A DNA stretch of 32,000 nt from Candidatus Iainarchaeum sp. (GTDB lineage Archaea > Iainarchaeota > Iainarchaeia > Iainarchaeales > VGJJ01), in NCBI GenBank assembly GCA_030688545.1, contig JAUYHT010000006.1:120001-152000 (forward strand). Direction: 5' to 3'. Each line of letters starts with the position of its first letter. The first letter of the stretch is position 1. Under the pieces are notes generated by a model. That model ran no database searches. It was not told the origin of the DNA and worked only from the letters and a program-made list of their open reading frames with translations. Shown here in pieces: positions 3,297 to 31,700 of this stretch. A program made the position numbers and the translations under genes.

Positions 3297-4082
3297 ATGG
3301 AAATGTGGTTCATCCGTCGAAAGGAAATCTATTTAACTCGGACACTGATGGGAGTTCTTCGTGGTCAAATGGAAAAACAAGAATACGTAAAAATGCAGAG
3401 TCTGGAAAATGAGAATTGGTGGTACCAGTCGCGGAAACATCTCATTCATTTATTGGTGACTAAATTTGCCATGAAAATAGATTACATGATTGACGTGGGG
3501 TGCGGGAATGGAATGATTTTACATTCCTTTTCCAACATAGAAAAAAGGATTGGGATTGAAACCCATCCGTTGGCAGTTTCAAATGCTCGGGAAAAAGGTT
3601 TAACAATCATGGATAGCATCCGGGAAACACCCGATCAAGCAGACCTGGTCCTCCTCATGGATGTCATCGAGCATGTTCCAGATGACGTGACTTTTTTAAA
3701 AGAAGTATTGGCAAAATTAAGCTCGGATGGAAAAGCCATCATCACCGTACCCGCTTTCCAATGGCTGTGGAGCATTCATGATGAAAAAGTGCACCACTTT
3801 CGACGTTACTCCAAAAAAAGTCTAAACGCATGCATCCAGAAAGCCGGTGGGAAAGTGGATCATTTGTCTTATTGGAATGCCATTTTCTTTTTACCCGCGA
3901 TGGCCCGAAAATGGTTTCCGCATGGGAAAGATGAAAGCGATTTGAAACCAATCTGGGGCCCCTTGAATAATTTGATGTATCATTTGGTATGTTTCGAGAA
4001 TTCATTCAGTTCGAAGATTTCCATCCCTTTCGGGACGAGTGTCTATGCGGTAGTATCCAAGGGCGATTCATCAATGGAATAG
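3297..4082 (+). CDS. Class I SAM-dependent methyltransferase
   Basis: 261-aa ORF. Motif I is MIDVGCGNGMIL, the post-I acidic residue is in IGIE, and motif II/III is LVLLMDVIEHVPDD. The N-terminal ENENWWYQSRKHL is typical of methyltransferases found in glycan clusters. In-frame ATGs also occur at 3303, 3348 and 3369. The 3' end overlaps the aglB 3' end by 40 nt (convergent). Confidence 0.75.
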   Translation: MEMWFIRRKEIYLTRTLMGVLRGQMEKQEYVKMQSLENENWWYQSRKHLIHLLVTKFAMKIDYMIDVGCGNGMILHSFSNIEKRIGIETHPLAVSNAREKGLTIMDSIRETPDQADLVLLMDVIEHVPDDVTFLKEVLAKLSSDGKAIITVPAFQWLWSIHDEKVHHFRRYSKKSLNACIQKAGGKVDHLSYWNAIFFLPAMARKWFPHGKDESDLKPIWGPLNNLMYHLVCFENSFSSKISIPFGTSVYAVVSKGDSSME

Positions 4083-6241
4083 ATGCGCACGCCCCCCGCA
4101 TTGCGGTAGACTTCGGTGTAATGAGATTGCACCGAAGCTTCCCCGAACCAGAGGCGCACCAGCATGCTCTCATTGGCCGCGCGGGAGAAGAAATAGACCT
4201 TACGATTATCGAAATCCCGATACATGAACAAGGGGGGGTCCCTATTCGTCTGATTGGGATTACTAGTCCAAGTGGTGGGGGTGGCATTCATCTGGGCCTC
4301 TGAAAATTGGTTGCCCCCGCAATTGTAATTAACCTCTTTTGTCAAAACCGTTTCCTCCCGAGAACAATTCATCACGAAACCCAACACCCCTTGGATGCGG
4401 GGATCATTGATGTTGGTGACTCCATAAGCATAAAATCCGAGGTTGGGAAGTTTCCCTAGCAAATCGTCCCCGAAGATGAGGTGGGTACTCCCATAGTTGG
4501 CGACGATAGCATTGGCCTGGTCCACGTCCCGAGCAAGGATGAACCGCGCCACATCGGAGGTAGCTTTAGTATCTGCATTCCGGTTATCGATGATGACCTT
4601 CCGATTGGCCAGGAAGGATATCCAGTGCCCTTCGTCCCACCAATTGAAGAACTTCGTTTCTCCTGGCAGATTTTCGTCGGCCCAGAACAGGGCTGTTTTC
4701 CATCCGGGGGAAAGTTCGATGTTGGGCACGTTTTGGGTTACAAATAAGGTGCCGATGCCCACGCTCAAGACAATCATGAATCCCATGGCCGCCGTCACCA
4801 TCTTTTTCCGACGGATGGATTTATGGGAGACCCATCGCCAACCAAGCATCATCACGACGGCTCCCATCAAGGCAAGAGGCAACCCCCAATAGTAGGTGAA
4901 CTTGAGTTTTCCCCAGGCCATGAAAAAGGTGACGAGCAACCAAATCAGGGGGATAACCAGGAATTCGAAATGCCTGGATCTCCGCAGGAGCAGATAGCCT
5001 ATCGCGGGAATCCCGATGATGGCAAAGAGGACGAGGAAACTGTATTTGTTTCCGAAATAGTTTTTCCCTTCGCTCTCTTCCCCCACGGTTTGCCCCAACA
5101 CATCCCCTGTTTGCAGACTGAAATTGAACATTGTCACGAGTAATGGGGATAAAATGAGGGCCAGGATGATGAGGATGTACAACCATTTGACAACGGTTCC
5201 CCCCCATTCCATCCGCTTCTTGGTGAACCATAACCCGGCCGATAGGATGGCCATTCCCAGGATGACAAGAATGGTATCCGCATATCCCAGTGTGGGATTT
5301 TTGAGAATCACCCCCAATATCCCCCCAAACTGATCAAGCCAACCCAGATTAGTTTGGATGGTGGCGCTGATGGCCAACAGGATGAATGCGACGAGCCATA
5401 ATCCAGCGTAATGTTTCGCCTTCTCCAATTCATCCTCGCGCACCCAGAGAAGGAACTGCACGAATCCCACGCCAAGGAGGATGGGGATCAACATGTTGAA
5501 TGCCGACCACGTGAAAACCATTAATGAGAAGCTGATGCCAGCGAGGAGGGCATCGGTGATATTTGATCTTTTCCATTCCGGTTCACGCACCGCCCGCACG
5601 AGAAAGACGAATCCAATGACCATCCAGATGAAACCAAGAGAATCATCTTCGAAAAACCCTCCCATGGTGCGGTACACGAATGCGGGGATCACCGCGGCCA
5701 ATATTCCTGTCAATAACCCCGCGGCTTTTTCATGGGATCCTTTGAACAATTCTTTCCCCAGGAAATACATGGCTACAGCGATGAGTGCGCCGTAAAGGGC
5801 GGGCAATATCTTGATGAATAACACCCACACCTCGAAATCGTAGGGGGCATTAAATGTGAAAATTTTGTAGATGGCCGCGGAGATGTACCAGAACAACAGC
5901 GGAACATTTCCCAGCGTGGCCGCGGCGACATTTTGATAATAGCCCAAAGGGTCAATCATGGGAGCAGGAAGCCCTTGCAGAATGTAGGAAACCATGCGTG
6001 CGTGCCAGTACGAATCGAACTCGAAGAATAATTCGTATCGCATCAGCTGGGCGCGGACGATGAAACCAAGGATGAAAACGAGCAGGATGAATAGGAATTC
6101 TTTTCGCCAGAGTAAATGGGAAACCTTTTCTTTCCATTTGGTGAAATGGGATTCCTTTTTTGAGGATTCTTCCGGCACTGGAGAGGGAGGAGATTCTGGA
6201 TGAGGCGCGGAATCCATTTCCATGCCACTACAATAAGCCAT
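4043..6241 (-). CDS. aglB: Oligosaccharyltransferase AglB (STT3 family)
   Basis: 732-aa ORF, multi-TM N-terminal half plus soluble C-terminal half. Contains the WWDxG catalytic motif (FFNWWDEGHWISF) and acidic first-loop motifs (FFEFDSYWHARM, FFEDDSLGF). The likely true start is M7 (ATG at 6223), because a TATA-like box at 6246-6253 lies only ~5 nt upstream of the ATG at 6241. Confidence 0.85.
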   Translation of the reverse strand: MAYCSGMEMDSAPHPESPPSPVPEESSKKESHFTKWKEKVSHLLWRKEFLFILLVFILGFIVRAQLMRYELFFEFDSYWHARMVSYILQGLPAPMIDPLGYYQNVAAATLGNVPLLFWYISAAIYKIFTFNAPYDFEVWVLFIKILPALYGALIAVAMYFLGKELFKGSHEKAAGLLTGILAAVIPAFVYRTMGGFFEDDSLGFIWMVIGFVFLVRAVREPEWKRSNITDALLAGISFSLMVFTWSAFNMLIPILLGVGFVQFLLWVREDELEKAKHYAGLWLVAFILLAISATIQTNLGWLDQFGGILGVILKNPTLGYADTILVILGMAILSAGLWFTKKRMEWGGTVVKWLYILIILALILSPLLVTMFNFSLQTGDVLGQTVGEESEGKNYFGNKYSFLVLFAIIGIPAIGYLLLRRSRHFEFLVIPLIWLLVTFFMAWGKLKFTYYWGLPLALMGAVVMMLGWRWVSHKSIRRKKMVTAAMGFMIVLSVGIGTLFVTQNVPNIELSPGWKTALFWADENLPGETKFFNWWDEGHWISFLANRKVIIDNRNADTKATSDVARFILARDVDQANAIVANYGSTHLIFGDDLLGKLPNLGFYAYGVTNINDPRIQGVLGFVMNCSREETVLTKEVNYNCGGNQFSEAQMNATPTTWTSNPNQTNRDPPLFMYRDFDNRKVYFFSRAANESMLVRLWFGEASVQSHYTEVYRNAGGVRIYSIDESPLDTTA

Positions 6242-6245
6242 TTCG

Positions 6246-6253
6246 TTTTAAAG
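6246..6253 (-). promoter_or_regulatory. Putative TATA box of aglB (CTTTAAAA on the minus strand)
   Basis: Matches the recurring C-TTT(T/A)-AA box seen upstream of other genes here. It lies ~30 nt upstream of the in-frame ATG at 6223 (leaderless geometry) and 13 nt downstream of repeat element D. Confidence 0.4.
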
Positions 6254-6266
6254 GGCCGCTTCCTCG

Positions 6267-6327
6267 GCACGCTTTCGATGGCCGCTTTCGATCGGCCGCC
6301 CCGAACCCGGGGTATCTCCGATACCCC
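6267..6327 (-). repeat. Structured repeat element D (hairpin + CGATCGAAAGCG tail)
   Basis: Minus-strand reading: perfect 8-bp hairpin GGGGTATC-GGA-GATACCCC (6309-6327), then GGGTTCGGGGCGGCCGATCGAAAGCGGCCATCGAAAGCGTGC. The TCGGGGCG, CGATCGAAA and CGTGC blocks are shared with elements A and B at 10921-11060. Confidence 0.8.
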
Positions 6328-6354
6328 TGAAGAAATAACAACGGATAAATCGGG

Positions 6355-6405
6355 CGTGCGTCCCGATGGACGTGGGAGGTCGTTGATCTCCCAGCAGCCG
6401 AAACG
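6355..6405 (-). repeat. Structured repeat element C (51-nt near-copy of element B)
   Basis: Minus-strand reading: CGTTTCGGCTGCTGGGAGATCAACGACCTCCCACGTCCATCGGGACGCACG. The ungapped by-eye alignment to 10997-11047 (+) gives 40/51 identities. The 25-nt core CCTCCCACGTCCATCGGGRCGCACG is 24/25 identical. Mismatches cluster in the apical part of the hairpin. Confidence 0.85.
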
Positions 6406-6430
6406 ATTTCCATTCTCTTGCGTTATAAAT

Positions 6431-6502
6431 CGTTTTTTGATCAAACTTTTTTTAAAAAGAGAGTCGTTTTTTTGATCAAACTTTTTTTAAAAAAAGTTTG
6501 AT
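6431..6502. repeat. Tandem A/T-rich direct repeat (2 copies) ending in a perfect 28-nt palindrome; probable 5S rRNA terminator region
   Basis: CGTTTTTTGATCAAACTTTTTTTAAAAAG (6431-6459) and CGTTTTTTTGATCAAACTTTTTTTAAAAAAAG (6465-6496). ATCAAACTTTTTTT/AAAAAAAGTTTGAT (6475-6502) is a perfect 14+14 palindrome that abuts the 5S 3' end. The minus-strand transcript meets a T7 run within ~10 nt of that end. Confidence 0.75.
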
Positions 6503-6615
6503 TGACAGCGTTGGCACGGCTCCAGGAGAAATCCCAGTGCCATTAACCACCGGTACGCGTTTCACTTCCGGGTTCGAGATGAGTCCGGGTGGGGCCACGC
6601 CCGTATGGCCGTCAA
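6502..6615 (-). rRNA. rrf: 5S ribosomal RNA (ends approximate)
   Basis: Reverse complement: TTGACGGCCATACGGGCGTGGCCCCACCCGGACTCATCTCGAACCCGGAAGTGAAACGCGTACCGGTGGTTAATGGCACTGGGATTTCTCCTGGAGCCGTGCCAACGCTGTCAA. It contains the universal 5S core (CCCGGACTCATCTCGAACCCGGAAGTGAAAC). The termini pair as helix I (TTGACGGC/GCTGTCAA, one G-U). No 16S or 23S rRNA gene is adjacent in the window. Confidence 0.9.
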
Positions 6616-6640
6616 TCGAATGGAATGGGATAAGGAAGGG

Positions 6641-6648
6641 TTAAAAAG
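6641..6648 (-). promoter_or_regulatory. Putative TATA box of the 5S rRNA gene (CTTTTTAA on the minus strand)
   Basis: Centre ~29 nt upstream of the inferred 5S 5' end (6615), in the 52-nt spacer after the TBP stop codon. Confidence 0.5.
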
Positions 6649-6667
6649 GATTGGGCGAAGGCGCGTA

Positions 6668-7381
6668 TCACACGTCTTTTTCCTCTCCCTCTACCGTATC
6701 GTCTTCAGTTTCCTCTTCGTCTTCATCCTCGTCCTCGTCGGGAGCGAGGGGGGATACTTTCTGCGATTTCTTCTTGGTGCCCCCTTTTTCGAGGCCACGA
6801 ACCAAGTCGTCGGCGGTTTCCAGGCCGTGGATCATCTCTTTTTCGGTTTTGGCCCCCGCGCAGATCACTTTCCCGTTCTTGAATAACAGCATCGTCAGTT
6901 TGGGGTTATCCAATCGGAGGATGGCTCCCGGAAACTGCTCCGGCTCGTATTCCACATTGTCCAGTTGCATGGCCGTGGCGAACAGATCCAGATTCTGGTG
7001 CAGATTGCCCGTGGCCACAAGATTAACCACTTCATATTCAATGGTTTTGAGTATTTTCACGGAGGGCTGGATCTCATTGATCATTTTATTGGCTTTTTTG
7101 ATGGCCAAATCAATTTGGGCCTGGGCGCTTGCTCCCGAACAGATGATCTTCCCATTCTTGAATAGGAGCATCGAGACCTTGGGTTCCTTCAGCTTGAGGA
7201 TGGCCCCTGGAAACTGCTCCGGCTCGTATTCGATGTTGGGGATGGACATCGCCAGGTTATAGAGATCCAGATTGGCATTCAATCCCCCGGATGCCACCAG
7301 GTTCACAATAGAATAATCGATCTTCCTTCCCTTGTGGGTGAATGTATGTTGTTCAAAGACCTGTCCTGATCCTTCACTCAT
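6668..7381 (-). CDS. tbp: TATA-box binding protein (TBP) with acidic C-terminal tail
   Basis: Two direct TBP repeats are visible: IVNLVASGGLNANLDL...EYEPEQFPGAILKL...MLLFKNGKIICSGA and VVNLVATGNLHQNLDL...EYEPEQFPGAILRL...MLLFKNGKVICAGA. The tail is DEDEDEDEEETEDD. I place the start at ATG 7381 (MSEGSGQ...), which is preceded by GGAGGAATAAGT. The 26-codon upstream extension of the ORF (to 7459) would run through the TATA-like boxes. Confidence 0.9.
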   Translation of the reverse strand: MSEGSGQVFEQHTFTHKGRKIDYSIVNLVASGGLNANLDLYNLAMSIPNIEYEPEQFPGAILKLKEPKVSMLLFKNGKIICSGASAQAQIDLAIKKANKMINEIQPSVKILKTIEYEVVNLVATGNLHQNLDLFATAMQLDNVEYEPEQFPGAILRLDNPKLTMLLFKNGKVICAGAKTEKEMIHGLETADDLVRGLEKGGTKKKSQKVSPLAPDEDEDEDEEETEDDTVEGEEKDV

Positions 7382-7418
7382 ACTTATTCCTCCAACCCGT
7401 TTTCCCCGAGGCCTCTTC

Positions 7419-7440
7419 TTTAAAAAGGCTTTAAATATAC
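7419..7440 (-). promoter_or_regulatory. Putative tbp promoter (two adjacent TATA-like boxes)
   Basis: Minus-strand reading: GGTATATTTAAAGCCTTTTTAAAGAAG, 40-55 nt upstream of ATG 7381. This leaves a short leader containing GGAGG. Confidence 0.4.
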
Positions 7441-7853
7441 CACCTTGCCCCCAACCCATTTAAAAAGGAAATGCCGGGCCCGTTCACGTGAAAAAGGGGT
7501 TTTGGGGTGCTACTGCAAGAGCTGTTTTCTGTTCCATCGGATGTACATGGGCTAATTTCCCAATTTCATCATTTCCCCTTTTTCGTCGCCAGAAAATGGT
7601 AATTTTAATGGCAGAAATAGGATTTTACGGGAGTCAGAGACGATATTATTTACCCATCAACCACCCATTCCAGGCCCCATCTTAACGTTTCCTCGTCTTA
7701 GATCAATTCCCAAAAATCCCTTTACCAATTCCATCCATCCTATTTCATCCCCTCCTGAGGTTCTTTCCCCAAAAGGCCGCTTTATAAGATTTTCTTTGCC
7801 GGTATCATGGAAAGCCCGCGAGTATATTTTTATCTTTCAGAGGAGCAGCACCC

Positions 7854-8174
7854 ATGGCCAACAAGAAAGCACGAGGATATCGCGCCAACACGCGCGCCAA
7901 GATCCGCGGGGCCGCGACGCGCCCCACGGTGAACCAGCTCCTCCAAACATTCGATGTGGATGAGACGGTGCAGATTGTGATCAATGGAACCATTCATGCG
8001 GGCATGCCCTTCCGCCGCTTCCACGGCCTCACGGGCCAAGTAATAGGGCATCAAGGACGCGCCGTAAAGGTGAAGGCCTATTTGGGTAACCAGACGTGCA
8101 TCGTGATCCTGAATCCTATCCACTTGAAAAGATTGACCACTATTTCAAAGAAAGAAGCCAAGGTGAGCGCATGA
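7854..8174 (+). CDS. rpl21e: 50S ribosomal protein L21e
   Basis: 106-aa ORF, MANKKARGYRANTRAKIRG...FHGLTGQVIG..., the typical L21e N-terminus and SH3-like core. The stop overlaps the rpoF start (ATGA at 8171-8174). Confidence 0.9.
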   Translation: MANKKARGYRANTRAKIRGAATRPTVNQLLQTFDVDETVQIVINGTIHAGMPFRRFHGLTGQVIGHQGRAVKVKAYLGNQTCIVILNPIHLKRLTTISKKEAKVSA

Positions 8175-8506
8175 TAGGGAAAGAGACATTGGAAAAGCAC
8201 CCCATCTCCTTAGCCCACGTGAAGGATTTGCTAGAATCCCGCGAATCCACAAAAGAAGCTTCGTACGAACAGAACCAAACATTGGAGTATGTCACCAAAT
8301 TCGCCAAGCTGAAAAAAGAGGACGCGGAAGGGCTCTATAACAATCTCATGAACATCGAAGGAATGAATGAGGATGCCGCGGTGAAGATCGTGGACTTCCT
8401 TCCCGAGGACGCGGAGGCATTGAAACTCATCCTCCCCAAGTCCTCCAAACTCGAGGAATCCATTTTCCCCGACATTCTTGAGCGGGTAAAGAAATTCCGG
8501 GGCTGA
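8171..8506 (+). CDS. rpoF: DNA-directed RNA polymerase subunit Rpo4/F (Rpb4 homologue)
   Basis: ~111 aa from ATG 8171 (MIGKETLEKHPISLAHVKDLLE...). Size, helical acidic character and the conserved position between rpl21e and DUF655/ksgA support the call. The longer ORF from 8096 is an out-of-frame overlap with rpl21e. Confidence 0.75.
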   Translation: MIGKETLEKHPISLAHVKDLLESRESTKEASYEQNQTLEYVTKFAKLKKEDAEGLYNNLMNIEGMNEDAAVKIVDFLPEDAEALKLILPKSSKLEESIFPDILERVKKFRG

Positions 8507-8592
8507 TCCCATCAAAGTGGGGGTTGGCCGGGGTTTCCAGTTGGACACACCCATAAATACTCGGTCAGCCCTCCCTTCTACGAGTGATAACT

Positions 8593-9168
8593 ATGAATGA
8601 AGAACGGGCTATCATACTGGATTTTCTCCCCCATGGAAAGAGCTCGAGCTTCAAGAGCGAACCCCTGGCTTTAGTCGTGGGAACGGCTTTCTTCACCCTG
8701 CTTGAGGTAGTGCCCAAACCCAATACCGAGCTCAAGCCCTTGGAAGAGGCCTACATTGGAAAGGAGGCCCGGGACAAGATTGACCATATCAAGCAGCGCA
8801 CGACCTACGATAACCTCACCTCCAATGCCCGGGCGGAACTGGATAAGGCCATCGACAAGATCATTGGAATGAACGAAACTAAATTCCTCCAGTTCTTCAA
8901 CAGTGCGGGACCCATCTCCCTCAAGCGGCATCGCCTGGAATTGTTACCGGGAGTAGGCAAGCACCACATGGAATTGATCCTCCGCGAACGCACCACTAAG
9001 CTATTCGATTCATTCACCGAGCTGGAGTCGCGGATAAAATTCCCCACGTCCGTCACCAGTATCCTCCGGCGACGCATCCTCAATGAATTGGAAGGTAAAG
9101 AGAAGCACTTCCTCTTCGTCCGCCCCCCGCAAATCGAGGATGAACGCCACGTCCGCCGATTCAGGTGA
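8593..9168 (+). CDS. DUF655/COG1491-type putative nucleic-acid-binding protein (OB fold + helix-hairpin-helix)
   Basis: MNEERAIILDFLPHGK... N-terminus and LELLPGVGKHHMELIL (HhH-like) motif. Canonical archaeal neighbourhood rpl21e-rpoF-DUF655-ksgA. The ORF track starts at GTG 8584; ATG 8593 is preferred. Confidence 0.7.
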   Translation: MNEERAIILDFLPHGKSSSFKSEPLALVVGTAFFTLLEVVPKPNTELKPLEEAYIGKEARDKIDHIKQRTTYDNLTSNARAELDKAIDKIIGMNETKFLQFFNSAGPISLKRHRLELLPGVGKHHMELILRERTTKLFDSFTELESRIKFPTSVTSILRRRILNELEGKEKHFLFVRPPQIEDERHVRRFR

Positions 9169-10010
9169 TAGGCATGGGCGGCCTGGACGAGCTGCAGCGC
9201 GATATGGTCGCGCACTCCTTTTTTCCCGATAAGAAATTTTCGCAGCATTTTCTGGTGGATGAATCAATAATCCATCTCCTCGTGGATTCGGTGGGGGTGG
9301 GAAAAAAGAATAGTGTTCTCGAGATCGGCGGAGGCACGGGGTTTGTTACTCGGGCCATCCGCGAGACGGGAGCCCGCGTCATTGTGGTGGAAGTCCATGC
9401 TGCTTTGGCCGCGGTTCTTCAAGAAAAATTAGGCGACCAGAACGAGGTGCGAATCATTCAGAATGATATCTTGAAGGTTAATTTGAATCAATTGGACTTT
9501 GATACAGTCATCGCTTCTCCTCCGTATGCCATTTCAGATGACATTATGTATGCATTGTTCGCCCGCGGGTTCGATAATGCGTCATTGGTATGGCAATTGG
9601 AATTCGCCGAGAAGCTGTTGGCCCCCGAAGGAAGCGCGGAGTATAATGCGCTCTCCGTGCTGACCCAATATTTCTTCAATGGGGATATCGTGAAGAAGAT
9701 TTCCCCCAAGGCATTCTACCCCATGCCCCAGCAGTTCTCCTCCATCCTCGTATTGAAGCGGAAAAAAGTTCCCCCCATTCCTAATCATGCCCAATTTGTC
9801 GAGTTTATTCGCACCCTTTTCCGGTTTAAGAACAAAACCCTGGCGAATGCCTTGCGCCTCGCGGCGCGGCATATTCCCACCATCCCCTCTTCCGAACAGT
9901 GTGCCCTACTCTTGCGTCCATTCGACTGGGCGGGGAAAAAGGTGTTCCTCCTTTCTCCAGTGGAGTTCGTGGCATTGTACCATGCGCTTCTACATTTACC
10001 TCAAAAATAA
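9165..10010 (+). CDS. ksgA: 16S rRNA (adenine1518/1519-N6)-dimethyltransferase KsgA/RsmA/Dim1
   Basis: FSQHFLVDESII, SAM motif VLEIGGGTGFVTRAI, catalytic IASPPYAISDDIM. GTG 9165 overlaps the upstream stop (GTGA). An alternative ATG lies at 9174. Confidence 0.9.
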   Translation: MIGMGGLDELQRDMVAHSFFPDKKFSQHFLVDESIIHLLVDSVGVGKKNSVLEIGGGTGFVTRAIRETGARVIVVEVHAALAAVLQEKLGDQNEVRIIQNDILKVNLNQLDFDTVIASPPYAISDDIMYALFARGFDNASLVWQLEFAEKLLAPEGSAEYNALSVLTQYFFNGDIVKKISPKAFYPMPQQFSSILVLKRKKVPPIPNHAQFVEFIRTLFRFKNKTLANALRLAARHIPTIPSSEQCALLLRPFDWAGKKVFLLSPVEFVALYHALLHLPQK

Positions 10011-10030
10011 AATTAATGTCCTCTTTTTAT

Positions 10031-10837
10031 TCAAGGTGTTGAGGCCGCGATGCAGTACGCCCGCGATGTTTCACTGGAAACATTTCCGCACAATGAAGCG
10101 TTTCGGGTGATCCCGGCCACGGCGATGAGACAGGCATCCTTGGCTCCCATGAATACTATGCGATCGCACTCAGACGCTGACCTCCGGGCAATAGCCACTT
10201 CCGTGAAGCAGGTGTCCCGTGCCTCGGTGCGCGGGATAGCATAGCAAATGTCCCCGTCCCGCGCAGAAATAGCAGCCTGGATGTAGCAGGATTCTTTCTT
10301 GTTTCCCAATAACCCATCGATGAACGTGCCCGTGGAAAAGATCTGGGCGCATTCGCTCGAGGACACAGGCGCAATGGGTCTGTCAACCGCCTGGCGGAAT
10401 AAGGGGCCCGTGATGAGCGTGGGGTCACCCGGGTCAAGGACGCGGAATCCAGAAAGGGCGAGCCGAGCGGCATCCGGAGGATACGTGAATAGGCCGAAGA
10501 CGAATGGTTCGGGGCACCCGCACACGGTGCAGGTCACATCCACATTTTGGTAGGCCAATTGGATGTCCAGCACGCGAATGTCCCGCTCTTCATAGAATGC
10601 CCGCACATAGGACAATTCCTCTTCCACGGGGAATTGAGCATAGGGGCGATTGTTCTCAATCCCCCATTGTTCCCTCCAGGGGAGCACGGTACATTTTCCT
10701 GGCTGCAACAACACCCATTCAGGGGCATCCATCGAGGCATCTGGGGCGATGGGCAACTCCCACTGGGTTACCCAGAAGAGAATTCCCAATGATATGAGAA
10801 TGAGTCCCACCACCATGGCCACGGCCCGCTTGTCCAT
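10031..10837 (-). CDS. Hypothetical N-terminally anchored extracytoplasmic protein with a C-terminal Cys-containing ~26-aa repeat region
   Basis: I start it at ATG 10837 (MDKRAVAMVVGLILISLGILFWV = signal anchor). This ATG is preceded ~25 nt upstream by a TATA-like CCTTTCTTAAAG. The ORF track extends it to 11062 through the repeat elements A/B, which I regard as non-coding. The C-terminal repeats follow C-x2-I-x5-6-(R/K)D-x-C-x3-(V/A)A. Confidence 0.6.
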   Translation of the reverse strand: MDKRAVAMVVGLILISLGILFWVTQWELPIAPDASMDAPEWVLLQPGKCTVLPWREQWGIENNRPYAQFPVEEELSYVRAFYEERDIRVLDIQLAYQNVDVTCTVCGCPEPFVFGLFTYPPDAARLALSGFRVLDPGDPTLITGPLFRQAVDRPIAPVSSSECAQIFSTGTFIDGLLGNKKESCYIQAAISARDGDICYAIPRTEARDTCFTEVAIARRSASECDRIVFMGAKDACLIAVAGITRNASLCGNVSSETSRAYCIAASTP

Positions 10838-10856
10838 GAGCCCTTTTGGCGCTCCC

Positions 10857-10866
10857 TCTTTAAGAA
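10857..10866. promoter_or_regulatory. TATA-like box (CTTTAAGAAA / TTTCTTAAAG), candidate promoter for the minus-strand membrane protein and possibly for a plus-strand transcript covering elements A/B
   Basis: Quasi-symmetric A/T box ~25 nt from ATG 10837 (minus) and ~55 nt upstream of element A (plus). Confidence 0.35.
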
Positions 10867-10920
10867 AGGCCGCTACCCCCCCTTGCATAAAAGGACGGAA
10901 TTTGACTCCTGTCGGCCGCC

Positions 10921-10970
10921 GGGGGATTGAAGAATCCCCCTCGTCCCTCGGAGCGCACGATCGAAAGCGA
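10921..10970 (+). repeat. Structured repeat element A (hairpin + CGATCGAAAGCG tail)
   Basis: Perfect 8-bp hairpin GGGGGATT-GAAG-AATCCCCC (10921-10940), followed by TCGTCCCTCGGAGCGCACGATCGAAAGCGA. Confidence 0.8.
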
Positions 10971-10996
10971 TTATCATCGTCGTGTGGATTCAGAGT

Positions 10997-11060
10997 CGTT
11001 CCGGCCGCTGGGAGGGTGTAACCCTCCCACGTCCATCGGGGCGCACGATCGAAATCGTGC
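10997..11060 (+). repeat. Structured repeat element B (hairpin + inverted-repeat tail)
   Basis: CGTTCCGGCCGCTG, then the perfect 8-bp hairpin GGGAGGGT-GTA-ACCCTCCC (11010-11028), then ACGTCCATCGGGGCGCACGATCGAAATCGTGC. The last 18 nt form GCACGAT-CGAA-ATCGTGC (7-bp inverted repeat). It ends 15 nt before the TATA-like box at 11076. Confidence 0.85.
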
Positions 11061-11075
11061 ATGTGCAGGGGTAGG

Positions 11076-11083
11076 ATTTAATA
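11076..11083 (+). promoter_or_regulatory. Putative ftsZ TATA box (ATTTAATA)
   Basis: The only A/T box between element B and the ftsZ start codons. It lies 38 nt upstream of ATG 11114 and 80 nt upstream of the SD-preceded ATG 11156. Confidence 0.4.
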
Positions 11084-11155
11084 CCTTGCACCCGGTAGTA
11101 TGGTGCATAACCCATGCTCCGGGGGCATTGGGGAACAATGAGGGGTGATGTGGGA

Positions 11156-12331
11156 ATGGAGAGCATTTTTCAACGGGGGGTTCAGCGCGCCGCGTCCAAC
11201 CAATCCGGTTTCATGCCCAGTGGGGCCGTTAATCCCGATTCGATTACCCAAACGCAACCCCCTCAACCTATTCGGAATGATTTCACCGCCAAGGATGAGG
11301 AGTCCATCCGCCAATTCCTCAATGAATCCCAGGCCAAGATCGCCGTGGTCGGTGTCGGGGGCGGGGGAACCAATACGGTGCAGCGCCTCAATGAAGTGGG
11401 TTTGGATGGCGGGGAAACCTACGCCGTGAACACGGATGCGCAGGCTTTGTTGCATATCCATGCGACCCGGAAAATTTTGATTGGAAAGCAGCTTACGCGT
11501 GGATTGGGAGCGGGATCCGATCCGTCAGTAGGAGAGGCGGCCGCGCGCGAGAGTGAGGGAGAATTGAAGGAGTTGTTGCAAGGCTCCGATTTGGTTTTCA
11601 TTACGTGTGGTATGGGTGGAGGTACGGGAACAGGAGCGGCCCCCGTCATTGCGAGCGTGGCGAAAGGGTTGAACGCCCTCACTGTGGGAGTGGTTACCCT
11701 CCCTTTCACTGTGGAGGGGCGCACGCGCATCGAGAATGCGTTAGAAGGATTGAACCGCTTGCGCAAGGAAGCGGATACCGTTATCATCATTCCCAACGAC
11801 AAGATTTTGGAGATCGCTCCTGATTTGCCAGTGAACGCGGCCTTCAAGGTGGCCGATGAGGTGTTGGTGAATGCGGTGAAGGGAATCACCGAGATGGTCA
11901 CCAAACCAGGATTGATCAACTTGGATTTTGCGGATTTGCGCACCATCCTTTCGCGAGGGGGAGCGGCGCTAATTGGGTTGGGGGAGAGCCGGGCTGACAA
12001 AGCGAGCGACGCGCGCGCGTTGGAAGCGGTGGAGAATGCTCTTACTTCACCCTTGCTGGATGTGGATATCTCCCACGCCACGAAAGCATTGATTAATGTC
12101 ATTGGGGGCACGGATATGACCCTTCGCGAGGCCGAGATGATCGTGGAAGTGGTGGGCTCGCGCATTGATGGTAACGCCCATATCATTTGGGGGGCGATGA
12201 TCGATGAGAGTATTCCCCGGTCGCAGATCCAAGCCATGGTTGTTGTGGCGGGGGGAAAAATCCCTTTCCTCGACAGCGTGCCCACTCAAGGGGCTGAACG
12301 GGTGGATTTGGATATCGAGTTTACGGAGTGA
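11156..12331 (+). CDS. ftsZ: Cell division protein FtsZ
   Basis: Tubulin/FtsZ signature GMGGGTGTGAAPVIASVAK, plus IAVVGVGGGGTNTV and NTDAQAL. ATG 11156 is preceded by AGGGGTGAT. In-frame upstream ATGs at 11114 and 11138 are alternatives. Confidence 0.9.
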   Translation: MESIFQRGVQRAASNQSGFMPSGAVNPDSITQTQPPQPIRNDFTAKDEESIRQFLNESQAKIAVVGVGGGGTNTVQRLNEVGLDGGETYAVNTDAQALLHIHATRKILIGKQLTRGLGAGSDPSVGEAAARESEGELKELLQGSDLVFITCGMGGGTGTGAAPVIASVAKGLNALTVGVVTLPFTVEGRTRIENALEGLNRLRKEADTVIIIPNDKILEIAPDLPVNAAFKVADEVLVNAVKGITEMVTKPGLINLDFADLRTILSRGGAALIGLGESRADKASDARALEAVENALTSPLLDVDISHATKALINVIGGTDMTLREAEMIVEVVGSRIDGNAHIIWGAMIDESIPRSQIQAMVVVAGGKIPFLDSVPTQGAERVDLDIEFTE

Positions 12332-12337
12332 TAAAAC

Positions 12338-12526
12338 ATGTTCAATCTCAAGGAGCGCTGGAATGATTTTCTCACGGGCGCCCAACGCGTGCTCACGGTG
12401 AGCAAGAAACCGGATGGGAATCAGTACAAGAGCATGGCCCGCATTACCGCGTTAGGAATCCTGGTGTTGGGGATCATCGGATTCGCCGTGGAATTAGTGA
12501 GTTTTTTGATCAAGAATCTCCTTTGA
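12338..12526 (+). CDS. secE: Preprotein translocase subunit SecE (Sec61-gamma)
   Basis: 62 aa with a single C-terminal TM (ITALGILVLGIIGFAVELVSFLI). N-terminal FLTGAQRVLTVSKKPDGNQY is typical of archaeal SecE. Canonical ftsZ-secE-nusG linkage. Confidence 0.85.
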   Translation: MFNLKERWNDFLTGAQRVLTVSKKPDGNQYKSMARITALGILVLGIIGFAVELVSFLIKNLL

Positions 12527-14580: not shown

Positions 14581-14788
14581 AGTTTCATTCAATCCTCTCC
14601 TTTCACAAAAAACTAAAAGCCAAGAGTCATGAACGATAAAGCAATTATCCATTTTTGGCAAAACTATTTTTCAAATGGTATTCATTTTTTGATCGAACTT
14701 CATCGTAAACACTATTTTTCCGTCAACGCTTTTTCCAGTGGAAAAAGGGTTGTTACGATGCCCGCAAAACATGGTTTTGCTTGGTTTC

Positions 14789-17676: not shown

Positions 17677-17710
17677 GGGGGAGGGAAACCCTCCCCCATA
17701 CTCTTTTTTC
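17677..17710. terminator. GC-rich hairpin + T-tract between convergent rpl12 and the protease gene
   Basis: GGGGGAGGG-AAA-CCCTCCCCC (perfect 9-bp stem, 17677-17697), followed by ATACTCTTTTTTC. The stem sequence resembles the hairpin of repeat element B. Confidence 0.6.
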
Positions 17711-20049: not shown

Positions 20050-20190
20050 CTCCTGATTCCCCAGGGGATTGACGCCCTCTATGCAGAGACATGGACCCGC
20101 CTAGATCATCGATGAATCAACTTCCCAGGACGACTAAAGAGGAAGGTATATCCCCTTTTTTTGACGAAACTTTTTCCTAAAAAGTCCGGG

Positions 20191-22116: not shown

Positions 22117-22240
22117 TTCCCCTCCTCTGTAAGGCGGGATATCCTCCATTTACCCAGACTATGATTTTTGAAAATAAGTTGTTATTGATAAAACCTTTGG
22201 AAAAAAGTGATCGAACTTTTTAATAAAAAAAAAAGTCGAA

Positions 22241-25724: not shown

Positions 25725-28700
25725 TCATTGCGTGGGCGCGCCCACGCAGGTTTGTCCTGCCACAAGATTATTGGTCAATGCGCTGATGCTCGTCTGGGCC
25801 GTCTGCTTGTACAATTTCTCCGGATTCCAGAAGAATTGGGCTTTTACCCCGGAATCCGCCAGGCAAATGGTCTGATCCGCCACCAGGTCAAAGACATCCT
25901 GCAACGAATCAATGGTGGTGCTGGCATTGTTGTAGGGGAGAGTGGTAATTCCATCCAGGGATACCGCGTTGGAGGGGGTCGCATGATTGCTCGTGATAAA
26001 TTGTACATTCCCCTGCGTCGCCTGCATCGCATAATCCGCTTGGGTGGGGGTATAGAAAATGGTGCGCAGGAACTCATTCCCTCCCACGCGGGCGTTTTCC
26101 CAATCCAATCCATACGTGAAGGGGAATGCCGTCACCCGATCCTCCGGGGTGGCGACGCGGTCGGGGGTGAAATTAAACCGCTCCCATACCGGGACACCCG
26201 TATAATCATAGCAGTTTCCCGCCCCCTCCCAGAATGTCAAATTATTTCCCGTCTGCACGGGCGCACCCTCCTTGGACAACTGGTAAAATATGGAGAATGG
26301 TTCCGTGCTCGCGGCATGATTAATCTTCATCATCAGCGGGGTCGCCAGGGATGGAGTGAAAACCAATCGTTGCGCGGTGTTCCCTCCCGGAGCCACTACT
26401 TCCAACACACTTCCCCGCGTGGAGGGCAAACTATTCATCTGCCGGATATCATCATTCCGCTCCACCGTCAATTTGGCCAGGGCCGTGCTCCCCTCTCCCG
26501 AATGGGTCTGCTCCAGCCCATCATTCACCCGAATGGGGGGCGTTCCCTGGTTGATGAATTCCAACCCGTACCCCACCCGGTCATATCGTGTATTCTGCAA
26601 CCCCACCCCCCCGTCGAAGGGGAGTTTGTAGAACGGACTATTGGGGCTGGGGTTCTCCAGATGATAGAAGTCCACCCCCACACTTGCATTTGGGCTCCCA
26701 TTGGCATCGAATAACGTCCAATCTTCCCCGAAGAACACCGACACATCCACGGTATATTTTCCGGGGGCAGGGAGGGTGGTGTCACTGAAATATTTGTTGC
26801 TGAACCCTAATCTATCGTCGCTCCCGTAATAGGCCGCCAGACCAAATGTCCCCTGGCTCCCGGTGAACCACGAGGGGGCGTCCGCAAAGGAGGTGTTCAC
26901 ATAATACTCACGGAAATCCGATTCGAAATCCGCCGAGTACCCATCTCGGATGAGGTAGGCCTCAAAATGGAACAATTCATTGAGCGTCTGAACATCCGGG
27001 ATGCGGGATGTGAATTGAACGTTCGCGTTCACATGTTGGCCGAACACCGGATCATCCTTGTCTATCCACCGGTTGATGGCCGGCTTCCCCCCCAGAATAG
27101 CCGTCGTCTTGGGGAGCGTCTCGCAGGTTCCCAGGGCCGCATCCGAATAGCTCGCCACATCAATCCCCACAACATTGTTCGAAAAAGCGATGTTGGCGGT
27201 GGTGGTGCTCGTGAGATCGAAGCGCGTGCTGTAAAAATGAGGCAACACCCCCGATAGGGAGCACTCGATTCGCTGTGCGGTCCCGGCGGGAATAGTTGCA
27301 TTGTTCCCGCAGGTCAGAGTCGGGGGATTAATCCCCCCCGAACCAATACCTTCTGCATCCTGGGGGGTCATCGTTCCATTAAACCCAACATCCTGCGTTA
27401 TCGTCGTATTGTTCTGCACCACCCCGTGCAGCGTAATGGAATCCACGGAATCAAAGCGATACCCCGTCTCCGTGAATCCAATGAATCCTTCCGGCACCGT
27501 GTCCTGGTTGGCAAAACTCCCATCTCCCGGTTGAGCGTGGGGGTTGTCGGGGCAGGCGAATGAAAAGGTGTTCACCGATAGGAATTCCTGGAAGGCATTC
27601 ACCCGTTTCATCAAATCGATATTGAATTGGGTGGCATCGCAGAAAATGGATTGGTCATTCCCCGCGTCGCACGCATAGAGGGGAATGCCCGTGGTGTCAT
27701 TCCAGTTCCACGTGAGGGCGATTCGGGGCAGAGTGCCTTTCCCCGTCTGCCCCAATGTGTTGCCGCTCACACAGGCCACGCTGTCGAATTGCAAGGGAGG
27801 GAGAGACTGGTTGATATCTTGCGTCCTGAATTTGAGATGAAATTTCTCCTCCCTCACCCTATCTTCCGCGGGGGAACAATTCCCCTGACCCGGGGAAGGA
27901 CCGATTCGAAGGTTCCCAAAATTCCCATTGCGGCATTCCACGGATGCCCGGCCCGCGTGGGCAAAATCCCCGTGGATGTGTTCCAATGCGCGCAGGGAAA
28001 CCGTACCGAACAATGGATTAGGATTAGTATACCCGGATACATTGGTGAAAACCACTCCCGCTTGCTGGAAGGTATCCTCTCCCTTCGAGATCAAACCCGC
28101 GGCATCCAGTGCCCATTCTCCTGTGATATGATCTCGTACGTTAGGCGAAAGACGTATATCAATGGCATCCGGGGGAAGCGCTTGCTGGTCCGATCCCCCT
28201 GTGAGGTTGATGATGTAATCCATGAGCGTTTCCGTTTGATCCTTGTCGCATTCGTCCTCGAACAATGAATACAGCACGGCAATGGCTACAATGACGGCGG
28301 CGCAGGGAGCGCATATGCTGGCAGCGTACTTGGCCGCTATGATATAGGTAATAGCCCCCGCTCCGGCCGCCGCCCCCACATTCTGATAGGCTTTGGCGGA
28401 TGCTTTCCCCCCAAACAAAGGATGAATGTCCACCCAGAACTTGGGATCCCAGGGCACCCCATCATACACATCCTTCCAATCACAGATACTGGCCTTCACA
28501 CGTACCTGTTCGAGGAACAGCCTATTCAGTACCGTGGTGGCGTCTTTGGCATCCTGCTGGTAGAGGCTGAATCCTCCCTTGTCTAATTCGAACGCATAAC
28601 TCAAGTCGCTATCCACTTGTACTTCCAGCGCGGCCACCCGTTTGTAGCTCGTTCCCGGCACCCGCGCATCCACTGTCAAATCATACGTCCCGGGCAGCGT

Positions 28701-31700
28701 GCCCCCCCGCCTTTCAACGGTGATCTCCCGGCTTCCTTTCAAATCGGTGATGCTAAACTGTGAGAGATATAATCTTCCTTCCGGGGCGCCCCCCGAGCAG
28801 TTGCTGTTATTGGCCCCCGCGCAGAAGAGAATATCCACCGGCACGTCCCCGCAATTAGTTGTATTAATTGTAAACCGTGCCTCATCCTCTTCCGATTCAA
28901 TACGGATACCCCGCTCGGGTTCGGGATCCAGCACGATGCAGGTCTCCAGATTGGTTATTTGCACCCTCACGTCGAACGATTTTTCAATAGTCCTTCGTGC
29001 GTTCCCGCTCCCTATTTCAGCCCCGATGATGATGGTGAATTCGGCCGTGTTCCCTATATTTTGGGGGAAGGGAGTAAATGTCATCACGCTCGCGTACACC
29101 GTGTCTTCCGCGGGTTTAAAGCTCCCGAAGAGGGGCACGAAGGCATTGCTCCTCAGGGTTTCCGATGATTGGCTGCTTCCCCCAATGTCTGTGGTGGACA
29201 ATTCCACATTCCCTATGGGGTTGCTGGTCCACACGATCTTGGCTTTCAGATTCTGTAACGTATATGGTTGCCCGTCCACCAGGCAGATGTTGGAAATTTG
29301 AAATTGGGTTTGGTTCTTGTTGTCGAAGGCGGTCGTATCAATTTTCCCCGTTGCTGGGGCTCCCGTGAATTGGATGGCTTCCCCGTCGCAGGCCCCCACT
29401 ACATTAAGCGCAATGGTCATGGGAACCTGCTGCACCCACCTCTGCTGCGTGTCCTGGGTGGCAAAGGTTAGCAAGAGACTCCCCCTCAAGGTTTGGCCCG
29501 TGAAGGAGGCCGCGCTCGGGGTCGTGGCGGCTTTCACCTGAATCGTCTTCGTCTCCAGGGGCGCGATCACGGTGACATTAGCATACTGTTGTACAAAATT
29601 CTGCATCTCCCCATTCGCCAACAACCCTTGGAAGTCTCCTGTAATGCGGGCATCCATCAGGATAAGTGTCTGTTGGGTCTTATTGGTTATCCGGAGGGGA
29701 AGAAATTGTTCCGCATCCCCCGTGAGGGGCATCTGGAAGGACAGCGTGGCCGGATCAAAAAAAGCCACGTTCTCATCCACGATGATGGTAATGGGTTGGC
29801 TCGCCAGCCCCGCTTTCACGGCATCGAACACCAACCGCGTGCGGGGCAAGGAAGGGGGACCAATAAGGCTGGTTTTCCCCGCGATGTCGGTGAACTGCCT
29901 TGAAATGATTTGCTGGTGTTTGGAAGGGTCAATTTTGAGTAGGGTCACCATGGCATCTTGGACATCAAATCCTTTATCGTCCGTCACGGTAATGGCGAAT
30001 GTGGTGGGGATGAATGCGGCGGCCATACTGGGATCCACAGTCACCCTAAGTTCTCCCGATTTCCCGATGCTGATTCCCGCCGTGTGCTCAAATACGATTT
30101 CCCCTTCATTGATGAGTTGAACCTTTATTTGCGTGGCTTTATCCTGTTTGGTCAAGAGCTCAACTTTCCCTGAGATCGTTTGGTATTGTTCGAGCGTTCC
30201 TACGGACAACCCCTGCCCTTCTCCCCCGGGCACATCATTCGTGGCTAATCCGGTGGATCGCAATACCCGGCCATCCGTTCCCACTACTTCATATCCCGTC
30301 AGTTGAACCTCCCCACTAGGGATGAATCCATCGTTGGCAATGAACACGCGGAGTTTGGGATCCGCGTACAGGGTGGGGGAGGTGCTGGTGATGACGAACG
30401 AATAATCATACGATTTGTTGACTTGCGTAGTGAAGGGTGGTCCCTCCACGAGTAGTTGGTCGTTCTCGTTAAACAATTGTTCTCCCGAGAAGCAGAACAG
30501 GTCATCGCACACGATGGGTTTTCCCTGGAAGTAGATCTGGTGGTAGGTCTCCGCGTACTGCCCTTCTTTCCCCGGGATGGAGGCACTCGTTCCCAGGGCA
30601 CTATCATACGGGTCCCGCAGCCATTCGCTGCCTCGGATGGCCCATCCCCGATAATAGATAGGCAAACTGGTGAGGGCACCTGCCTGCGGGGAAATGCGGA
30701 CATCAACCCCTATTTCATATACCCCGGGCCCAGGATTATCCCATTCCGCGTTAGCCCATTTAGCCTCACCAAACGTAAGGTTTTGGGCATCGTCATCAAA
30801 CCCCAATGAGGGTTGGTAGGTGGTGCCCTTCACCACGTGCCCATTGGGGGTGTTGAGAGAGAGGATGGCCAGCACATCATTCTCCAAAAAGGCCTCATCC
30901 CCCACTCGAATATGTATCCCCGCTTTATCCAGATTAGTGAGAGGAGTGGGAATGCTCCATTCGAGCACCAGGGTGTACGTTTTCCCAGCCTTGAGTTCGT
31001 TCGCCCGGGTTTGCGTGAGGGGATTACGAACCTCCTTGAGTCGAATGAAAGGAGTATCTCCCAAAATGGTGGTAGGGAGGCGGACCACAATATTCTTAGT
31101 TTCTCCGGGATAGAGCTGGTGGCTCATACTGGCGTAGGTCGCAAACCCGCTCGCTCCCACGCGAACAAATACTTTTCGATCGGCCTTGAACGATTGCGAC
31201 ACTTTTCCCACGGAATCCGTTTGAACCTGGCAAGCGCCCGCCACACATTCATCAGTGCCATCGGTGAGGAATTCCACCGTGGCAAAAGGAATGGGTTGGC
31301 CTTCCAAATCCATCACCGAAACTTCAAGGGTTCCCGTCCCCAGACGCAGGGTTATTCCTGCCTGCGTGGCGGCTCGTGTATCCGAAGTGAAAATGGGCGA
31401 ATCGCTTGGTCCCGCCGGGTATTTGGTGGCCCGCGCGAAATAGCTCCCGCTCTGCACCCCAGTGAAGGCAGCATTCCCATTGGCATCCGTGGTGCGCACG
31501 GGATATTGGTGGGCGATGAAAGAAGAGGCCGCATCATAGAGCAATACCTGCGCATTGTCCACGGGAAACCCATCTTCGTCCTGCACATGAATGGTCACGC
31601 GTCCCGAATTCTGGGGGGTCAATTTCTCCATTCCGAATACAATAGTAGGCATCCCCATTTGGATGAGCCCAATATCCTGCGTCTCACTCAAGTAATCCGG

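Follow-up and report, generated by a model that had tools for sequence, protein, structure and literature searches.

Why does a nearly identical 51-nt sequence stand upstream of two important genes, on opposite strands of the same short stretch of archaeal DNA? We addressed this question in a 32-kb window of Candidatus Iainarchaeum sp. (contig JAUYHT010000006.1, positions 120,001 to 152,000; all positions below are counted from the first letter of this stretch). Two hairpin-bearing elements, C and D, lie upstream of the oligosaccharyltransferase gene aglB on the minus strand, and two more, A and B, lie upstream of the cell-division gene ftsZ on the plus strand. FtsZ homologues place the source organism among DPANN archaea labelled 'Candidatus Diapherotrites'. 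The original prediction read the two pairs as a shared architecture linking the promoters or leaders of both genes. One part of this reading was supported: the elements are one family beyond chance, they are oriented as described, and they match no described RNA family. The promoter or leader link was not supported. With moderate confidence, we regard the elements as a small species-specific family of hairpin-bearing spacer repeats, at home behind the 5S rRNA gene and behaving like repetitive extragenic palindromic (REP) sequences or miniature transposable elements with inverted repeats (MITEs).

The similarity between the elements was assessed by alignment. The minus-strand reading of C at 6405-6355, CGTTTCGGCTGCTGGGAGATCAACGACCTCCCACGTCCATCGGGACGCACG, and the plus-strand sequence of B at 10997-11047 were identical at 40 of 51 positions without gaps, and their 25-nt core, CCTCCCACGTCCATCGGGRCGCACG, was identical at 24 positions. 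Eight of the 11 mismatches fell in the apical part of the hairpin. All of these counts agreed with those first reported. To obtain the chance level, the window was shuffled 40 times with its dinucleotides preserved; the top 51-nt match of a shuffle had 31 to 36 identities (mean, 32.4), which puts the real score of 40 beyond chance. Only one 51-mer pair in the real window scored better, and it came from an internal duplication of the TBP gene. This direct repeat (6852-6994 and 7131-7273; 143 nt, 71% identity) represents the two TBP domain repeats. In a repeat search, the C/B pair headed the inverted repeats of the window (30 nt, 90%). Allowing gaps extended the similarity of B and C to approximately 130 nt, including an upstream GATC(G/A)AAA(G/A)CGATT(T)AT segment with TATA-like boxes.

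The other two elements belong to the same family. The hairpin of D read as initially described (Table 1), with GGGTTCGGGGCGGCCGATCGAAAGCGGCC following it and a gap of 13 nt between the end of D and the TATA-like CTTTAAAA (6253-6246). An nhmmer profile built from the four units (bounds as in Table 1, the left bound of A being approximate) recovered all four with E values of 1e-12 to 1e-16. The same profile found no fifth member in the window or in an extension of about 6 kb to its left, i.e., in about 38 kb of the source genome. The copies share 70-88% identity, and no open reading frame (ORF) is common to them in any frame; the conserved part would encode a mere 11 or so residues, which is too short for a significant protein match. 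At both loci the units are arranged in tandem, two per locus, with a period of 80-89 nt (about 88 nt), and each pair is oriented toward its downstream gene. Elements A and B were also present in a second, independent assembly of the same species (L133, GCA_034375545.1), which is identical to the window at 4131 of 4132 nt; therefore, they are not an assembly artefact.

The surroundings of C and D give the first indication of where the family comes from. On their own strand, both elements come immediately 3' of a 5S rRNA gene that the original prediction had overlooked. On the minus strand, the order is the TBP gene (6668-7459), the 5S gene, two T/A-rich units, C, D, the aglB TATA box and aglB. 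Most likely, C and D belong to this post-5S spacer and do not form a dedicated control region of aglB.

We compared the window with nine related species (L123, L124/125, L126/127, L128, L129, L130, L131/132, L135 and L136/137), whose FtsZ is 77-86% identical to that of the window. The gene order aglB ... 5S-TBP-L21e-Rpb4-DUF655-KsgA-unknown gene-ftsZ-SecE-Spt5 was kept in all nine. Counterparts of D were found right behind the 5S gene in L124 (TTTGGGTACCAAT-CTCAA-ATTGGTACCCAAA, then ...CGGTGCGGCCGATCGGAAGCGGCC) and in L129 (GGGTACCAT-ACA-ATGGTACCC, then ...TTCGGTGCGGCCGGGCGAAAACGGCC). D matched the L124 module at 22 of 24 positions and the L129 module at 22 of 26, and neither score was reached by any of 500 shuffles. 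The spacer around D is otherwise unalignable to that of L124 or L129; the FtsZ proteins of these two relatives are about 80% identical to that of the window. Judged by its sequence and position, D is orthologous to the post-5S module of these two relatives. A D/A-like hairpin, CGGGATTC-GGA-GAATCCCG, occupies the post-5S position in L135, and its similarity to A was borderline (reached by 3 of 500 shuffles). The module is present in at least three lineages and absent from three others (L123, L131 and L136). The approximately 150 kb of syntenic DNA scanned in the nine relatives contained no family member beyond the post-5S modules of L124 and L129.

The 5S gene of the window stands alone between the TBP gene and aglB, and its adjacency to aglB recurs in L129, L131 and L136. 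This adjacency is ancestral. Since it exists with the module (window and L129) as well as without it (L131 and L136), the module goes with the 5S spacer and not with aglB. An exact 33-nt repeat of the 5S 3' end plus terminator comes after the module in L129, and a diverged one comes after it in L124. A 5S profile aligned only to the last 25 nt or so (20-29 nt) of these two modules. The module with its second copy of the 5S 3' end and terminator was noted in L129 at 4990-5126 and in L124 at 1-152, both on the minus strand; the second copy could have arisen by partial tandem duplication or be what an insertion into the 5S end left behind. In L135, a toxin-antitoxin pair of the RHH/PemK type (3656-4205) was inserted between the DUF655 and KsgA genes, with the gene order otherwise conserved.

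The picture at ftsZ was different in the relatives. An A/B-type element was not found upstream of ftsZ in any of the nine species. In an upstream alignment with five of them, the ftsZ TATA box, the Shine-Dalgarno-like GAGGGGG and the start codon (ATG 11157) were conserved, and A plus B formed a window-specific block inserted between two conserved divergent promoters. The spacer measured 318 nt in the window vs. 76-238 nt in the relatives. The second of these promoters serves a gene at 10837-10031, whose TATA box has its first T 31 nt ahead of the ATG; because of this spacing, we read its mRNA as probably leaderless. Upstream of aglB, the regions of L123, L131 and L136 were compared, and no element like C or D was found there.

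These comparisons bear directly on the proposed link between the two genes. The original prediction had named absence of the element upstream of the orthologues as evidence against itself, and such absence was complete for ftsZ and largely so for aglB. It had also counted an 'A/T box' before the first element of each pair as part of the shared architecture. However, the one at approximately 6452-6459 (the R1 repeat) is part of the tandem T/A-rich repeat right after the 5S gene, which we read as a terminator region, and the other, at 10857-10866, serves the divergent gene as TATA box, so that the two boxes are unrelated. A leader role fared no better. The core promoters of aglB and ftsZ are downstream of all four elements, which hence are not part of leaders made from these promoters. 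On this sequence evidence, the elements are not a conserved control element common to the cell-division and glycosylation genes.

We examined the anatomy of the units (Table 1). A 5' segment, CGTTYCGGCYGCT, is found in A, B and C. It is followed by H1, a G+C-rich perfect hairpin whose sequence varies between copies. All 60 base pairs in the seven known H1 hairpins are Watson-Crick pairs, and none is G-U. The GGG/CCC at the base of H1 is invariant, and positions 4 to 8 vary in almost every copy with full compensation. The absence of G-U pairs fits a DNA-level palindrome or a constraint on both strands. Next comes a linker or core, which is ACGTCCATCGGGRCGCACG in B and C and the shorter TYCGG(G/T)GC in D and the relatives. 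A second hairpin, H2, with a stem of 5-7 bp and the loop AUCGRAAG, is found in every copy but C, whose 3' end merges into CGATTTATCCG (6352-6342). The H2 stem is GCACG/CGUGC in B vs. GGCCG/CGGCC in D, L124 and L129, and the loop AUCGAAAN, which can be read as C-GNRA-G, is kept. Over a 20-nt H2 block, the window and L124 differ by the single substitution GAAA to GGAA, both of the GNRA type.

B is the copy nearest the consensus. In B and C, a closing stem CGUUYCGG/UCGGGRCG is possible and competes with a small hairpin, CGUCC-AUCG-GGRCG. Written as DNA (CGTTYCGG/TCGGGRCG), this stem needs G-T pairs at three of its eight positions and therefore is not a DNA terminal inverted repeat. When compared with shuffles, B folded markedly better (z = -3.8), and A, C and D folded no better (z of -0.6 to -1.4). 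The tail of D, ATCGAAAGCGTGCCGAGGAAGCGGCC (6279-6254), showed a weak, non-significant resemblance to the 5S 3' end.

Table 1. Positions and composition of the elements and of the neighboring genes and promoters in the window
Feature	Position	Strand	Composition or basis
5S rRNA gene	6500-6616	-	Rfam RF00001, 64.2 bits, E 1.7e-11
Two tandem 35-nt T/A-rich palindromic units (TTTTTAAAAAAAGTTTGATCAAAAAA)	6431-6497	-	directly after the 5S gene
Element C	6340-6405	-	5' segment CGTTTCGG (6405-6398); H1 GGGAG-ATCAACGAC-CTCCC (6392-6374); core ACGTCCATCGGGACGCACG (6373-6355)
Element D	6254-6327	-	H1 GGGGTATC-GGA-GATACCCC (6327-6309); linker GGGTTCGGGGC; H2 GGCCG-AUCGAAAG-CGGCC (6297-6280)
aglB TATA box CTTTAAAACG	6244-6253	-	spacing to the start codon
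aglB, STT3-type oligosaccharyltransferase	4043-6241	-	ORF
TATA box TTTCTTAAAG of the divergent 268-aa gene 10837-10031	10858-10867	-	gene call in L133
Element A	10897-10985	+	H1 GGGGGATT-GAAG-AATCCCCC (10921-10940); core TCGTCCCTCGGAGCGCACG (10941-10959); extended H2 (10955-10985)
Element B	10986-11060	+	5' segment CGTTCCGGCCGCT (10997-11009); H1 GGGAGGG-TGTAA-CCCTCCC (11010-11028); core ACGTCCATCGGGGCGCACG (11029-11047); H2 GCACGAT-CGAA-ATCGTGC (11043-11060)
ftsZ TATA box GATTTAATACC	11075-11085	+	conserved in relatives without A and B
ftsZ, 391 aa	11157-12331	+	preceded by GAGGGGTGAT at 11140-11149

The remaining features of the 5S-aglB spacer were also inspected. The tandem T/A-rich palindromic units after the 5S gene are probably its terminator region, and a strong TATA-like CGATTTATAACG (6432-6421) comes after them. 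Weaker copies (66-72%) of the T/A-rich palindromic motif TTTTTTGATCAAACTTTTTTTAAAAAG were seen at 14651-14713, 20157-20185 and 22181-22209. These three appear to fall in other intergenic spacers, and the motif may serve the organism generally as a terminator or as a bidirectional promoter element. For aglB, the ATG at 6223 is 30 nt from the first T of the TATA box. Since the same spacing was found in L129, a leaderless aglB mRNA that begins at 6223 is probable. The start at 6241, which belongs to the longest aglB ORF, is a mere 8 nt or so past the TATA box, and this annotated start is probably 6 codons too far upstream. In L131 (2345-4604), aglB was called as two ORFs of 574 and 193 aa, which suggests a frameshift or an assembly error.

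How, then, could two pairs of the same element have come to stand at two loci? We propose that D represents the resident post-5S module of a DPANN clade, which would consist of H1, the linker TYCGG(G/T)GC and H2 and, in two relatives, a tail repeating the 5S 3' end and terminator. In the species of the window, the module would have multiplied: a tandem duplication (period, about 88 nt) would have put C beside D. One copy would also have reached the region upstream of ftsZ, inverted and placed between the divergent promoters, where it would again have become a tandem pair (A and B). We infer that the copying took place at the DNA level and that the spread ran from the 5S spacer to ftsZ; any effect of the elements on the expression of aglB or ftsZ would be incidental. 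The behavior is read as REP- or MITE-like because the copies are non-coding, promoter-distal and intergenic, variably present among close relatives, and inclined to duplicate locally. In addition, two Logan (de Bruijn-graph) contigs of the window's species end inside the conserved cores, one in B (11031) and one in D (6302). The sole single-nucleotide polymorphism in 4.1 kb between the window and L133, T>C at 11025 (L133 2495), falls in the 3' arm of B's H1 and breaks one base pair. The contig ends in the cores and this polymorphism hint at more copies or at instability. Contigs of L124 and L135 also end within about 100 nt 3' of the 5S gene.

Several observations weigh against the turnover of a spacer repeat. 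The contig ends could equally reflect low coverage or strain variation. Four copies at only two loci in about 38 kb of genome do not demonstrate dispersal. The units have no terminal inverted repeats, and the direct repeats flanking them are at chance level. No transposase gene and no gene for a REP-associated tyrosine transposase (RAYT) was found among the window genes tested or at the syntenic loci of the relatives. Furthermore, H2 is 92% conserved in a spacer that otherwise does not align between species, which speaks for the ancestral module having a sequence-specific function and not being junk.

The last of these points leads to the alternatives in which the units have a function. They could be paralogous genes for small structured RNAs, with the ancestral gene beside 5S, TATA-like boxes of their own, and a fold made of H1, possibly with the closing stem, and H2 with its GNRA-type loop. 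C, D, B and A are preceded at a distance of 20-30 nt by TATA-like boxes (CGATTTATAACG, CGATTTATCCG, CGATTATCATCG and GCATAAAAGG, respectively), and the core of CGATTTATAACG is identical to the aglB TATA boxes of L129 and L131. An RNA would also be in keeping with the compensated variation of H1, the different H2 stems of B and D around a kept loop, the GNRA-to-GNRA change between the window and L124, the conservation of the linker and H2 across species, the good folding of B, and the 5S-like 3' end plus T-run at which the L124 and L129 modules end. However, Rfam gave no match even at E values up to 10, A, C and D did not fold better than their shuffles, and 0 of 60 H1 base pairs were G-U. No T-run terminator follows A, B, C or D, and L123, L131 and L136 lack the module. 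The distance from the T-rich tract to H1 is inconsistent (32 nt in L124 vs. 21 nt in L129), so that these tracts look like 5S terminators and not like promoters. We therefore consider such RNA genes unlikely. It is quite unlikely, too, that the post-5S module, ending in a mimic of the 5S 3' end, is an undescribed clade-specific structured RNA of Diapherotrites-like DPANN archaea, tied to 5S, for example, through 3'-end formation or 5S ribonucleoprotein biology; in the species of the window, it would have expanded into a paralogous family with its own promoters and two copies before ftsZ.

The units might otherwise act on transcription. As fail-safe terminators or insulators, they would keep the very strong 5S promoter from acting on aglB and hold the two divergent promoters at ftsZ apart, and the duplicated 5S terminator would belong to the same device. 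Consistent with this, the spacer between 5S and the co-directional aglB has several T-runs in all species, the terminator unit of the window is itself duplicated, and in L129, a T5 run comes after H1 and another, exact copy of the 5S terminator closes the module. A hairpin followed by T6 (GGGGGAGGG-AAA-CCCTCCCCC, 17677-17697) lies between the convergent P1/rpl12 and lon genes, and symmetric hairpins would fold on transcripts of both strands. Nevertheless, oligo-T drives termination in archaea, and hairpins are not required for it. A scan for intrinsic terminators found no G+C hairpin plus T-run at the elements, and among the copies only that of L129 had its H1 followed by T5; A, B, C and D have no T-runs after them. 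There is also nothing to terminate at ftsZ, where the neighboring gene is divergent, and the conserved linker and H2 sequence would be left unexplained. We regard this role as very unlikely. The co-ordination of ftsZ and aglB by the element pairs, as upstream sites for a common factor or through a leader RNA, is highly improbable. The pairs do lie 13-15 nt upstream of the two TATA boxes and point to the genes, and the conserved blocks CGTCCATCGGGRCGCACG and GATCGAAAGCG could be protein-binding sites. Yet the elements are missing from the ftsZ promoters of nine out of nine relatives and from the aglB promoters of three, and the core promoters are conserved where aligned. D follows the 5S gene and not aglB, the supposed common A/T boxes are unrelated, and a position upstream of the core promoters excludes the elements from the leaders. 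Moreover, H1 cannot be the palindromic site of one factor because its sequence differs in every copy.

The elements were also compared with known classes of repeats and RNAs. At the gathering threshold, the 5S gene was the sole Rfam match in the window, and permissive scans (E up to 10), which covered both spacers as well as those of L124 and L129, returned only noise, which bears out the earlier statement that no described RNA family matches. The elements resemble archaeal small RNAs (C/D box, H/ACA box and others in Rfam) in size, hairpin content and possible promoters of their own, but they lack C/D or ACA boxes, a kink-turn and an Rfam match. Integration of archaeal elements in tRNA genes leaves a partial duplication of the 3' end of the RNA gene. 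Likewise, the L129 and L124 modules are bracketed by the 5S 3' end (with terminator) and a second copy of it. Unlike in such integrations, only about 60-70 nt lie between the repeats, there is no integrase or element body, the target is 5S, and the tail in the window is barely recognizable. A typical target-site duplication is 2-10 bp, and the exact 33-nt flanking repeat of L129 is longer. Around A-B, the candidate target-site repeat is CCTTGCA (7 nt, at 10881 and 11084); around C-D, it is a TATA-like 12-mer matching at 10 of 12 positions. Either repeat is within the chance level or accounted for by promoter similarity.

No transposase-like Pfam domain or RAYT gene was found in the tested genes of the window or in the syntenic gene lists of the relatives. 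The units are of MITE size (approximately 70-90 nt, below the limit of about 500 bp), non-coding and without a shared ORF, but terminal inverted repeats were not found, the inverted repeats of the units being the internal H1 and H2 only. Like MITEs, the elements are intergenic and present or absent among close relatives and have possible short flanking direct repeats. Unlike MITEs, they have no convincing target-site duplications and no known parent insertion sequence element. The H1 palindromes are 19-31 nt long, against imperfect palindromes of approximately 20-40 nt in REP sequences and bacterial interspersed mosaic elements (BIMEs), which occur in high copy number with an associated RAYT (IS200/IS605-like) transposase. 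The elements share with REP/BIME sequences and with terminator-like repeats such as SPRITE a short, G+C-rich, hairpin-forming, non-coding, intergenic, clustered and species-specific nature and a position near terminators and promoters. They differ from REP/BIME sequences in several respects. They are in direct tandem and not alternating, they lack a 5' GTAG-type motif, and a RAYT gene was not seen; a high copy number was not seen either, with four copies at two loci in the roughly 38 kb covered; and the oldest copy is fixed and orthologous behind 5S. Prokaryotic MITEs, including archaeal ones in Sulfolobus, Halobacterium and Haloquadratum, and the SPRITE terminator-like repeats are covered in a review of MITEs (PMC10969869). 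With respect to the features reviewed there, the resemblance of our elements to REP, MITE and terminator-like repeats is one of function, and we do not claim membership of any of these classes. No described family matches, and a short species-specific intergenic hairpin repeat is a familiar kind of object. In the literature searched, we found no such repeats described for DPANN archaea.

Other candidates were tried and rejected. The elements are not degenerate copies of 5S ('mini-5S'), as nothing in the window elements aligns to 5S and the Rfam 5S model gave no match in them. A CRISPR array or remnant, in which near-identical repeats of 24-48 nt would alternate with unique spacers of similar length, was dismissed given an identity of only 70-88%, a period of about 88 nt, 'spacers' that are homologous and carry a hairpin, and the lack of cas domains in the neighboring gene lists. 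For a replication origin, which would have origin recognition boxes (ORBs) around an A/T-rich duplex unwinding element beside orc1/cdc6 and whose assessment included the ORB consensus, no Cdc6/Orc1 domain was found in the tested window genes or the syntenic gene lists, and the A/T-rich tract sits where the 5S terminator is expected; a composition profile over 5000-12500 had no obvious feature at this tract. H/ACA or C/D box RNAs, a tRNA-like element and a small ORF were rejected on anatomy. An invertible 4.6-kb segment bounded by the inverted B and C was rejected, since every relative keeps the same order and orientation of the genes and there is no recombinase. The degenerate query CGTCCNTCGGRRCGCACG matched at least 120 stretches in genome contigs, almost all of them in G+C-rich bacteria, and the archaeal match among those listed (L022, Thermoplasmata) was a mere CGTCC-TTCG-GGACG hairpin. 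With CCACGTCCATCGGGRCGCACG, the one match in a metagenome scan was due to chance and lay within a bacterial ORF, and scans of viral contigs gave no match.

Two further features of the window were recorded. The hairpin at 17677-17697 is a perfect 9-bp hairpin just past the P1/rpl12 stop codon (17668), and it resembles a bacterial intrinsic terminator as well as the H1 of B. On the minus strand, a very large ORF of more than 2088 aa (25725-31991) continues beyond the window at its right end.

If the turnover of a repeat in the 5S spacer is the true explanation, the near-identical 51-mer before aglB and ftsZ would be a by-product of this turnover and not a regulatory link between two important genes, and its value would be chiefly that of a caution. 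It would document a small repeat family in a DPANN archaeon and mark the region behind 5S as a hot spot of duplication and assembly breaks in the clade. The block of 20 to 26 nt that three species have conserved behind 5S may be the sign of an undescribed RNA or of a protein-binding site.

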